DNA of 64,000 bases, taken from positions 352,001-416,000 of the forward strand of contig CBDBZY010000041.1 of NCBI GenBank assembly GCA_965213685.1. Reading direction: 5' to 3'. The notes beneath the pieces were generated by a model, which saw nothing but the letters and a program-made list of their open reading frames with translations, was not told the DNA's origin and searched no databases. The position numbers and the translations under genes are program-made. Origin of the DNA: a bacterium. GTDB lineage: Bacteria > UBA8248. This document shows, piece after piece, positions 6,001 to 9,000 of the stretch (the first letter of the stretch is position 1; the number at the start of each line of letters is the position of its first letter).

Positions 6001-9000
6001 TAACCGGAAGTAACTACAAGACCTTACAGGTGCAACATGCGCAATATGCGCTACTGACTTGCCACACTTTGTAAGTGCGAGAAAGCTAGCTACGCCTACA
6101 GAGAGACTGTACACGTGGAGGGCGGACATTGCTCTGTGTGCTAGTTTGCGTCCTGTCTCTCTAGCTTGTCCCGTTGCAAAGTTACAGGTGCTGTGATCTA
6201 ATCGGGTAATTTTGAGTCTCCTCCGTGTACCGGCGTTTTTCTCTCGACCTGAAATTTTGATGGAGCTAAGGTTTGAACACCAAAGAGCATTGGTTTAGAG
6301 CAATATCTAGCATGTATTGCGCAACATTTTTTGTACAGAGCTGTGTGGCATTGAAATCGTGTGGATGTTTACTGAAATCGTGTGGGTGCTTAGTGCACCA
6401 AGACCATGTAGGTGAGTGCAGTATTCAGAGGGGGGTTACAAGGACTGTAGAATGGTTTGTATTTGTTCCATGGCAAAATGAGGTCGGCCTTCATAGCTAA
6501 ACTCTTGCTGGAAGGTATGACAATCTTTGTGCCACCCTGTGGCTCTTCGATGATTGTTTCTCTCTCAGCCAGGGAGCGCTGTCTAGCCTCATCCATAAAT
6601 TGAGCCGTTGAGCTCCCCCCACTGATAGCCTCATGCACAGCCTGAATTGTGACTGTCTGTCTGTGCTTGTCCTTCTACTGGCTTTGTCAGAGGTCACTCT
6701 TGGTGTGGGTACAGGCACAAATGTCATTGTCTGTGTAATGCAGTACCATGTGTTAATCTTTCACCGTGAGAACTGGTTATAGAATATTTACTAGTGTCAT
6801 TTTTACACCTTACCTGTCCTCCAGTTTGAACCTGTAGTAGGATTGAGGGCTTTGTGCAAGGGACCTCTTTGCAAGCCTACCCTGTAAGTCTCTCTCAGTA
6901 GGGGGTCAGCGGTGTGTCTAATCCCCGTGAAAGTATTGTTTCCACAGGAAGCTGTTCTTCTGAGGAGGTGGGAGGTTGACAACAATGTGTCAGGTAGTCT
7001 TCCATTCGCACTTCACCTGTGCATTGAGGACACTTTACCATGCATTACTCCCCCCAGGAGTCTCTGGAGCAAAGGCTCTGCTGCTTGCGCTGTGACGAAA
7101 TCAGTCAAGTGGTCACTGTAGCAGCACGGACACTGAAGGTCCTGTGTGATTTCAAGCCACCTGATCAGGCACTCACAGCATATAACGGATTGGCATGTAC
7201 TCAAAAGTACAGGTCTGTGCAGTATACTGTAGCATACAGGGCACGTTAGGTCGGACATGGTGTGCTGAGTCTGACATGTGCAGGAAATTTCCAACATTTT
7301 AACCACTCTTTACGCTCACAAATATCACCAGTGTAGGAAATTTCCAGCACATGAACACTCAAAAATGTCACCAGTGCAGGAAATTTCCTACAGTTTAACC
7401 CTTTACCAACCAATGACGCATATATGCGTCATAAGTGTCCTTCTTTTCTTCCATAAGTCCATAAGAATTTATATGGAGGTTATAATACTAGGCGCTAATA
7501 CTTTGTACAGTGTTTTCTGCTTCTTTAGGGCACTTTTATCTAAACAGGTATGGTCAGGTATGGTTGGGAAAGGGTTAACTTAACACTCACTAATATCAAC
7601 TGTGCCAGAAATTATCACCAGTGTAGGAAATTTCCAACAATTTAACCACTCTTTACGCTCACAAATATCACCAGTGCAGGAAAGTTCTTACACTTTAATA
7701 CTCACTCATATCAAATAATTATGCCAGAAATTTCCAACAAACTCTCACCAATATAACCAATATGTGCCGGAATATACTTCTGACATGTGTAGGACATATG
7801 TTTCAGCACTAGCAGTTGCTGGGACTGACAGTGCTACCTGTCTCGCAGATTAGCCCTTCACTTTCATGACTTCTTCATGACTTCTTCTCTTATTTAATTC
7901 GGACTGCGCTACTGTACCTGTACGTGTGGCAGTGCACTGTACCTGTACGTGTGGCAGTGCACTGTACCTGTACGTGGAAGGCCCTGGCCAGTTGGTAGCA
8001 GCTTTCTGCCTGCATGGCCTCCACGTCAGTGCCATGGAATGAGTGGAGAGCTAAGTGCTGCACCTTACCATAGTCCTGGGAGGGAGGGAGGGAGGCAGCA
8101 ATGTACAGTGCACCTACACTGTATATACGTATACACTGTATATACATGTACATGTACATGTACATGTATATACATGTACATGTATATACATGTACACAGC
8201 TGTATATACATGTACATGTATATACATGTACACAGCTGTAGTGTCTCTTGTAAGCAATACAAAATGATACAGAAGGAAGGGGAGGAGGTGAGCAATGTAC
8301 AGTGAACCTACATCTGTACATATACATGTGTACATGTACTGTACATGTACAGTACATGAAGCCTTTCCTCATGTACATGTACATGTACATGGAGGTACTG
8401 TATACATGTACATGTAATACAAAATGCTACAAGAGGGAGGGGAGGAGGTGGGAGACCTTCTTGAAGAAGAAGTGGTTGGCCAGGTGATTGAGGACCATGG
8501 GATTGGAGGAGTCGATTGTGTAGGCCTTTGAGAGAAGCTCAACACCTTTCTTGATGGAGTCATGCTGGGAGGGAGGGAGGGAGAGGGGGGAGGGAGGGGG
8601 GGGAGGGAGGGAGGGGGGGAGGTAGAAATGGGGAGAGGGAGGAGTGGGGGGAGGGAGGGACGAGGGTGGGTGGGAGGGAGGGAGGGAGGGAGGGAGGAAT
8701 GGAGGGAGGAAGGAAGGGAGAGAGGGAGGGAGGGAGGGGTGAAATGGAGTGGGGGAGAGAGAAGGAGAAAGGATGGAAGGGGGAGGGAGGGAGGTGTCCA
8801 CATAGTTCCACTCACCTGTTTGCTGTTCAGCTCCAGAATAGCCATGCCCACCAGAGCACCCACACAGTGATAGTCCAGCTCCAGACACCGGTGGAACGCC
8901 ATCCTGTGGGAGAGGTACAGTACATGTACACATGTACAGTACAACTCGTGTGTCCCCATAAAGATTCAGACAGTGGTCATGGGACAGTTGTGTTTGCATA

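Follow-up and report, generated by a model that had tools for sequence, protein, structure and literature searches.

A probable Chapaev-type transposase remnant with a RAG1-like RING and zinc finger A in an intron of CTR9

A fragment of about 0.8 kb on the minus strand, at positions 6467-7258 of the window (the whole stretch of 64,000 nucleotides that was analysed, C41:352001-416000), is very probably the truncated and dead remnant of a transposase gene from a cut-and-paste DNA transposon of the Chapaev type (DUF1280, CMC/CMCT), in the subgroup that carries a RAG1-like RING and zinc finger A. Read along its strand, it consists of a RING-like finger, a C2HC finger, a linker, an intron and a helical segment. 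A preliminary description of this DNA had proposed the remnant of a 'RAG1-like/Chapaev-related' element; of this, a Chapaev-type family (DUF1280) with a RAG1-like N-terminus has stood, and a RAG1L/Transib element has not, given that there was no Pfam RAG1 match and no HMMER match to the RAG1 core. RAG1 is the immune recombinase, and the Chapaev transposase is described as its known distant relative.

Contig C41 is eukaryotic and forms part of a mixed assembly, in which the six largest contigs have a G+C content of 44-53% and the next-largest ones listed about 63-66%. The fragment sits in an almost wholly repeat-derived intron of about 2.2 kb and has the same orientation as the surrounding gene. 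The flanking exons, both on the minus strand, match residues 282-320 (7890-8426, E = 2.8e-14) and 318-354 (5631-5948, E = 2.2e-12) of human CTR9, which confirms the earlier identification of the host gene.

Every element that had been recognised by eye was found where it had been placed, on the minus strand and across frameshifts. Homology to relatives starts at about 7255 (tblastn), in a RING-like finger of the C3-x-C4 type (7046-7258, frame -1) that was recovered with the relatives P0040 (residues 33-241, E = 1.1e-26) and P0154 (residues 53-97, E = 3.9e-4). Its top Pfam match was zf-C3HC4_2 (E = 7.9e-5, 22.8 bits, under the cut-off of 27), and the canonical RING histidine ligand is replaced by another residue in the window copy, as it is in the closest relative, P0040. 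The second zinc finger, C-x2-C-x12-H-C, is similar to RAG1 zinc finger A and occupies 6898-7041 in frame -2, together with a short proline-rich motif that follows it and is conserved in the family; searched alone against Pfam, this finger matched only zf-RAG1 (E = 0.31, 11.6 bits). A stop codon at 6897-6895 ends the frame -2 piece. The linker (about 6840-6902) is readable only in frame -3, has a frameshift on either side, and was covered by tblastn with P0040 (residues 153-257 against 6902-6564, E = 9e-13).

The first exon ends with LLQVQTGGQ (6814-6846, frame -2), whose TGG motif is conserved in the relatives. An intron of about 90 nt had been proposed directly after it, and a GT..AG intron is indeed present (6731-6813, with GT at 6813-6812 and AG at 6732-6731), its length being 83 nt; this length explains why the reading moves from frame -2 into frame -1. 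The relatives show an intron or read-through junk at the same site, with unalignable inserts in P0040, P0033 and P0036 and none in the spliced Patiria protein P0154. The next exon starts with a basic segment preceding the helical region (6668-6730, frame -1; tblastn with P0001 residues 1-37 and P0002 residues 1-20, 95% identity) and leads into a helical segment that ends in the motif LAMKADL..PWN (6467-6674, frame -3; tblastn with P0001, E = 4.5e-33), where the transposase is cut off. Along the whole fragment there are at least four true frameshifts, near 7042, 6900, 6850 and 6670.

Judged from the tblastn scores of these relatives against the window, the match is far beyond chance, with P0001 reaching 82% identity over 73 aa. 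All five reading-frame pieces were collinear in homology with the relatives (tblastn and alignment), and P0040 has the same layout as the window: RING, finger, TGGQ, intron read-through and P-M-T-L-V-P-V-P. A protein homology search with the last piece returned two 210-aa proteins (82% and 78% identical), and phmmer with P0001 against 1.84 billion representatives returned 334 relatives at E ≤ 1e-3, mostly short fragments, of which 42 had E ≤ 1e-10 and 4 had E ≤ 1e-30. DUF1280 was detected in 5 of the 150 aligned phmmer matches and in 3 of the 13 longer ones (E = 1e-19 to 2e-14), while PF12940 was found in none of those 13.

Full-length relatives of 600-980 aa, obtained by an alignment search for longer proteins followed by a search with Patiria P0154, came from a sponge gene set (ids 'Em..'), echinoderms, amphioxus and Hydra. 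Among the 19 that were aligned (alignment A3), PF06918 (DUF1280) was present in 18, PF12560 (RAG1_imp_bd) in 4 (best E = 1.2e-8), a Pfam RING in 2, and PF12940 (RAG1 core) in none at E ≤ 0.01; the consensus shows C(2)C and His-rich motifs. Positions 6456-6674 of the window matched these 19 proteins in hhalign with a probability of 96.7% (E = 4.5e-10), aligned to P0154 264-331. The RING and zinc finger A pieces were not significant against the sparse N-terminal columns of the same alignment (probabilities of 6.6% and 0.1%), and their assignment therefore rests on P0040, P0086 and collinearity. Four of the six window pieces had no family in a Pfam search, and DUF1280 was matched by none of them alone, because the fragment stops about 20 residues into that domain.

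The assignment to the RING-type Chapaev follows from the DUF1280 domain of the relatives together with passages from three sources. DUF1280 is equated with Chapaev transposases in a passage of Majorek et al., 2014; the account of Chapaev in Kapitonov and Koonin, 2015 (PMC4411706) has a Chapa domain and then a RING in two subgroups, an arrangement called 'similar to RAG1'; and in a 2026 preprint the Chapa domain is modelled as resembling the NZD, the N-terminal zinc domain of RAG1. The RING-bearing type is thus already described (Kapitonov and Koonin, 2015), and the fragment adds one further member to it.

The likeness of the N-terminal fingers to RAG1 emerged from profile A4, built from six N-terminal relatives and two window finger pieces. 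Against the PDB at E ≤ 10 it gave 14 matches, 13 of them RAG1 chains (E = 5.1e-4 to 1.2e-3) and the fourteenth LNX2 (E = 6.3), and in its alignments to RAG1 the matched region starts at the last cysteine pair of the RING and extends across zinc finger A. At the profile level, the end of the RING and the second finger are specifically like the RAG1 RING and zinc finger A, which supports the first reading of the two zinc motifs; as the profile picks RAG1, the matches are not confined to ordinary RING and TRAF proteins. When the window RING piece was searched alone against PDB sequences, it matched generic RINGs, with TRIM39 at E = 1.8e-4 and RAG1 (1rmd) at E = 0.14, and sequence searches of Pfam and the PDB, run with the window pieces or with P0001, likewise gave generic RINGs only. 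By fold, the modelled RING-finger module tied (VIA-align) between RAG1 1rmd (Z = 10.4, 29% identity) and the modules of TRAF6 and LNX (Z = 10.0-10.2).

Similarity in the transposase core was recovered from structure, using the starfish relative P0154 and not the window copy. No RAG1, RAGL or Transib chain was among the 41 PDB matches of the HMMER profile of A3 at E ≤ 10. With an AlphaFold2 model of P0154 (mean pLDDT 79.3, pTM 0.63), all 39 Foldseek matches listed (ranks 1-49, with each PDB entry's further chains left out) were RAG1, BbRAGL, HzTransib or the RAG1 dimerisation domain 1rmd, the best at E = 7.6e-15. VIA-align superposed residues 310-905 of the model on residues 460-1008 of mouse RAG1 (Z = 28.8, rmsd 3.8 Å over 455 residues, 15% identity); BbRAGL (Z = 24.0) and HzTransib (Z = 23.8) also aligned, and the next family was the P element transposase (Z = 10.8). 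Identity in the structural alignments to RAG1 was only 13-15%. Although HMMER profiles are blind to it, the predicted structure of this intact relative shows a RAG1-type fold from the DDBD to the C-terminus.

Since window positions 6456-6674 correspond to P0154 264-331, and P0154 310-905 to RAG1 460-1008, the LAMKADL..PWN end falls at P0154 310-331 and therefore at RAG1 from about residue 460. In RAG1, the dimerisation and DNA-binding domain (DDBD) begins about there. The helical segment (6467-6674) was thereby placed, by position, at the RAG1 nonamer-binding domain (NBD) and the first 20 or so residues of the DDBD, and the earlier proposal that LAMKADL..PWN lies at the start of the DDBD is upheld by superposition through the P0154 alignment and model. 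The domain order of RAG1 is as named in the relevant passage of Martin, 2020 (PMC7204232).

The correspondence is much less clear for the NBD itself. In the P0154 model, 3 of the 35 RAG1/RAGL/Transib rows reach into RAG1 400-445, with an rmsd of 6.2-12.5 Å. A second model, of P0054 (pLDDT 78.1), is limited to the portion that the window retains. Foldseek found nothing for it at E ≤ 0.001, and none of 48,161 chains reached Z ≥ 5 with VIA; the RAG1 NBD (3gnb_A) ranked sixth at a noise-level Z of 2.9, with model residues 134-190 collinear with RAG1 391-456. No GGRPR motif was found after the fingers, and the suggested equivalence of TGGQ with the GGRPR of the NBD is not sustained by a match at that noise level. 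Were the NBD equivalence real, GGRPR would correspond to the P-x-P-R-V after the intron, and not to the TGGQ before it. We regard it as rather unlikely that the stretch 6467-6730, which begins with a basic P-x-P-R-V..RR and contains two long helices, is a true homologue of the RAG1 NBD. If it were, RING-type Chapaev would keep the whole RAG1 order of Chapa/NZD, RING, ZFA, NBD, DDBD and core, and this layout would be older than the split between Chapaev and Transib, and not assembled in the RAG lineage.

Both breaks of the fragment coincide with the edges of other repeats. Transposase similarity ends at 6467, about 20 residues into the DUF1280 domain, and this 3' break (6466/6467) adjoins an unrelated repeat at 5964-6466 (blastn, 78% to C64:829167-829353 and 74% to C64:830000-830290). 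The CACGGGTG at 5961, which had been considered as a possible terminus of the element, turned out to be the far edge of this separate repeat. The 5' break (7258-7274) adjoins a truncated copy, at 7274-7916, of a non-autonomous element that is about 400 bp long and recurs at C18:388664-389081 and C7:146934-147289. The window copy contains internal repeats of about 53 bp with a GGAAATTTCC palindrome and lacks its inner end. Nested in it at 7395-7578 is a small element flanked by TTAA, the 18-nt inverted ends of which (inverted repeat I5) are 94% complementary; copies of this element lie at C41:17741-17888 and C64:21390-21471. The 7274-7916 repeat found no support as the transposase element's own 5' end: its C18 and C7 copies are self-contained, with 29-nt inverted ends of their own and no link to a transposase. 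The homology of P0040 begins at the RING (about 7255), beside a different repeat.

With P0152, a relative that bears a Chapa domain, tblastn found nothing corresponding to the Chapa region between window positions 5900 and 7900, the range covered, and PF06918 was matched neither in the window pieces nor in the assembly. A search of the assembly with the fragment recovered the window's own copy only. With 151 family proteins as tblastn queries, 97 of the 98 HSPs fell at the window locus, the other being a weak 24-aa match at C64:343 kb, and with nine full-length proteins no core was found, all 25 HSPs falling either on an unrelated RING or on those parts of chimeric gene models that are not Chapaev. 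Scans of public contigs with P0001 gave 96 pattern matches in genome contigs and 135 in metagenome contigs, none of them relatives.

Chapaev ends are described, in the section of Kojima, 2025 (PMC12730594) on these elements, as terminal inverted repeats of the form 5'-CA..TG-3' with a target duplication of 2-5 bp. Neither terminal inverted repeats nor a target-site duplication were evident in the window or the assembly, where both flanks are other repeats and there is no second copy. PF12940 and PF03089 (RAG2) had no match in the assembly either, which is weak evidence, because the assembly contains only part of this eukaryote's genome; PF03089 was silent in the control genomes too. The full copies with a DDE core, inverted ends and a RAG2-like gene for which the preliminary description proposed to search were not found in this partial assembly.

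Of the transposase gene, only the stretch that starts with the RING and ends some 20 residues into the transposase core survives. Retention of one of the gene's own introns shows that the element was copied as DNA, and not as a processed retrocopy. The copy is broken by at least four frameshifts and cut off on both sides by other repeats, and it probably does nothing now, as ordinary genomic debris. The ancestral protein would have been a DDE transposase with a RAG1/Transib-like architecture, a view that rests on the intact relatives and the predicted structure, not on the window.

Decay bears directly on the notion of a live gene nested in CTR9, or of an alternative exon of it, which we hold to be extremely unlikely: the orientation shared with CTR9 and the preserved GT..AG intron would fit it, but the 0.8 kb contain four frameshifts and a stop, and at each end the copy breaks off at a junction with a repeat. 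Equally little probability attaches to an origin from a cellular RING E3 ligase gene (TRAF, LNX or RNF type), as a fragment or a pseudo-exon. The RING piece alone does fit ordinary RINGs best, TRIM39 scoring well ahead of 1rmd, and structurally the module is as close to TRAF6 and LNX as to 1rmd; however, the segment after the fingers runs collinear into proteins whose next domain is the DUF1280 core, and in the search with the family profile RAG1 came up while TRAF and LNX did not, except for the LNX2 match.

An origin from a genuine RAG1-like (RAGL) or Transib transposon, and thus from direct kin of the V(D)J recombinase, would fit the RAG1-specific character of the RING-ZFA module and the RAG1-like predicted fold of the relatives from the DDBD onward, and RAGL elements are reported in cnidarians in a passage of Martin, 2020 (PMC7204232). 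Against it stand the Pfam assignments, with DUF1280 in 18 of the 19 full-length relatives and PF12940 in none of these and none of the 13 longer phmmer matches, as well as the 0 of 41 PDB matches of the family HMMER profile and the low structural identity to RAG1; the missing PF12940 and PF03089 matches in the assembly add a weak point, the assembly being partial. We consider this origin very improbable and already largely refuted, and retain a decayed RING-type Chapaev transposase as the explanation of the fragment.

For the window itself this matters little, the fragment being one more decayed transposon piece in a repeat-derived intron. It may serve as a pointer that the host lineage once carried RING-bearing Chapaev elements, which Kapitonov and Koonin, 2015 (PMC4411706) give as the only transposons besides RAGL reported with the RAG1 N-terminal zinc modules. 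The wider kinship of Chapaev, Transib and RAG1 is already in print, and the part of Kojima, 2025 (PMC12730594) that treats it unites the three in a CMCT clade sharing C(2)C and H(3-4)H motifs. The RAG1-like structure predicted for the relative overturns none of the published groupings; it agrees with those of Majorek, 2014 (clade II), Kapitonov and Koonin, 2015 (the 'Transib superfamily') and Kojima, 2025 (CMCT).

Compared with the TRAF6 and LNX E3 modules, the RING and the next finger have the same fold (Z = 10.0-10.2, rmsd 2.3-2.8 Å), whereas the sequence profiles miss these modules except for LNX2 at E = 6.3, and in TRAF6 and LNX no transposase follows. With RAG1, RAG1L and Transib, the family shares a RING-ZFA module that is RAG1-like by profile and, in the relative, a predicted core that superposes on RAG1, BbRAGL and HzTransib; it differs from them in lacking a core sequence match, in its Pfam family, in showing no GGRPR motif and in having no RAG2-like partner among the sequences searched. 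The nearest known system is Chapaev with a Chapa and RING N-terminus (Kapitonov and Jurka; PMC4411706). The window copy keeps only the front 0.8 kb of such an element, without the Chapa domain, the DDE core or the ends and with the RING histidine replaced, but what it keeps stands in the same order: RING, C2HC finger, linker and the start of the DUF1280 core.

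The assembly from which the window is drawn (GCA_965213685.1; 7.97 Mb in 71 contigs), filed as a prokaryote genome, is a mixture, with a G+C content of 44-53% in the six largest contigs, namely C64 (1.64 Mb), C18, C41, C16, C51 and C7, and of about 63-66% in the next-largest among the contigs listed. Intron-bearing genes of animal type, as exemplified by CTR9, are present on at least C41, the contig that carries the window at positions 352001-416000.

For the 5' portion of the CTR9 locus (window 7911-10476), additional partial copies are present on the same contig, at C41:575717-578710 (90-99% identity), and at C41:508099-510812 and C41:423837-425174 (90-97% identity). 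Two of these three copies share homology with the locus from window 7911 and 7932 onward, where the ~400-bp element in the CTR9 intron has its outer edge; for C41:423837-425174, the match does not start until window 8416. This ~400-bp element belongs to a family characterized by 29-nt inverted ends and internal repeats of about 53 bp, each of which contains the palindrome GGAAATTTCC. Members were found at C18:388664-389081, at C7:146934-147289 and at window 7274-7916, where the copy is expanded and has no inner end.

Other repeats occur at the locus. A (GTACAT)n-type microsatellite, frequent throughout the eukaryotic contigs, was recorded with window 5791-5905 and 7911-7985, together with a 25-bp minisatellite of about three units that extends into the end of the upstream CTR9 exon. 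Window 9098-9223 corresponds to a short repeat of ~120 bp with dozens of copies at 77-90% identity, distributed over C2, C4, C7, C16, C18, C41, C51, C53 and C64, and is probably a host SINE or MITE family.

Among the relatives of the intronic Chapaev fragment, outside the window, some sponge gene models (P0158 and P0160) combine the transposase with parts unrelated to it. In P0158, residues 559-800 have matches at many loci in contigs of the assembly, and the tail of P0160 has them at C41:180798 and C41:183927; both fusions look like chimeric predictions.

Finally, an element of 184 bp occupies window 7395-7578. It has inverted ends of 18 nt and a TTAA tetranucleotide on each side, is nested inside another repeat, and has further copies at C41:17741-17888 and C64:21390-21471. 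Its TTAA flanks suggest that it may have been mobilised in a piggyBac-type manner.
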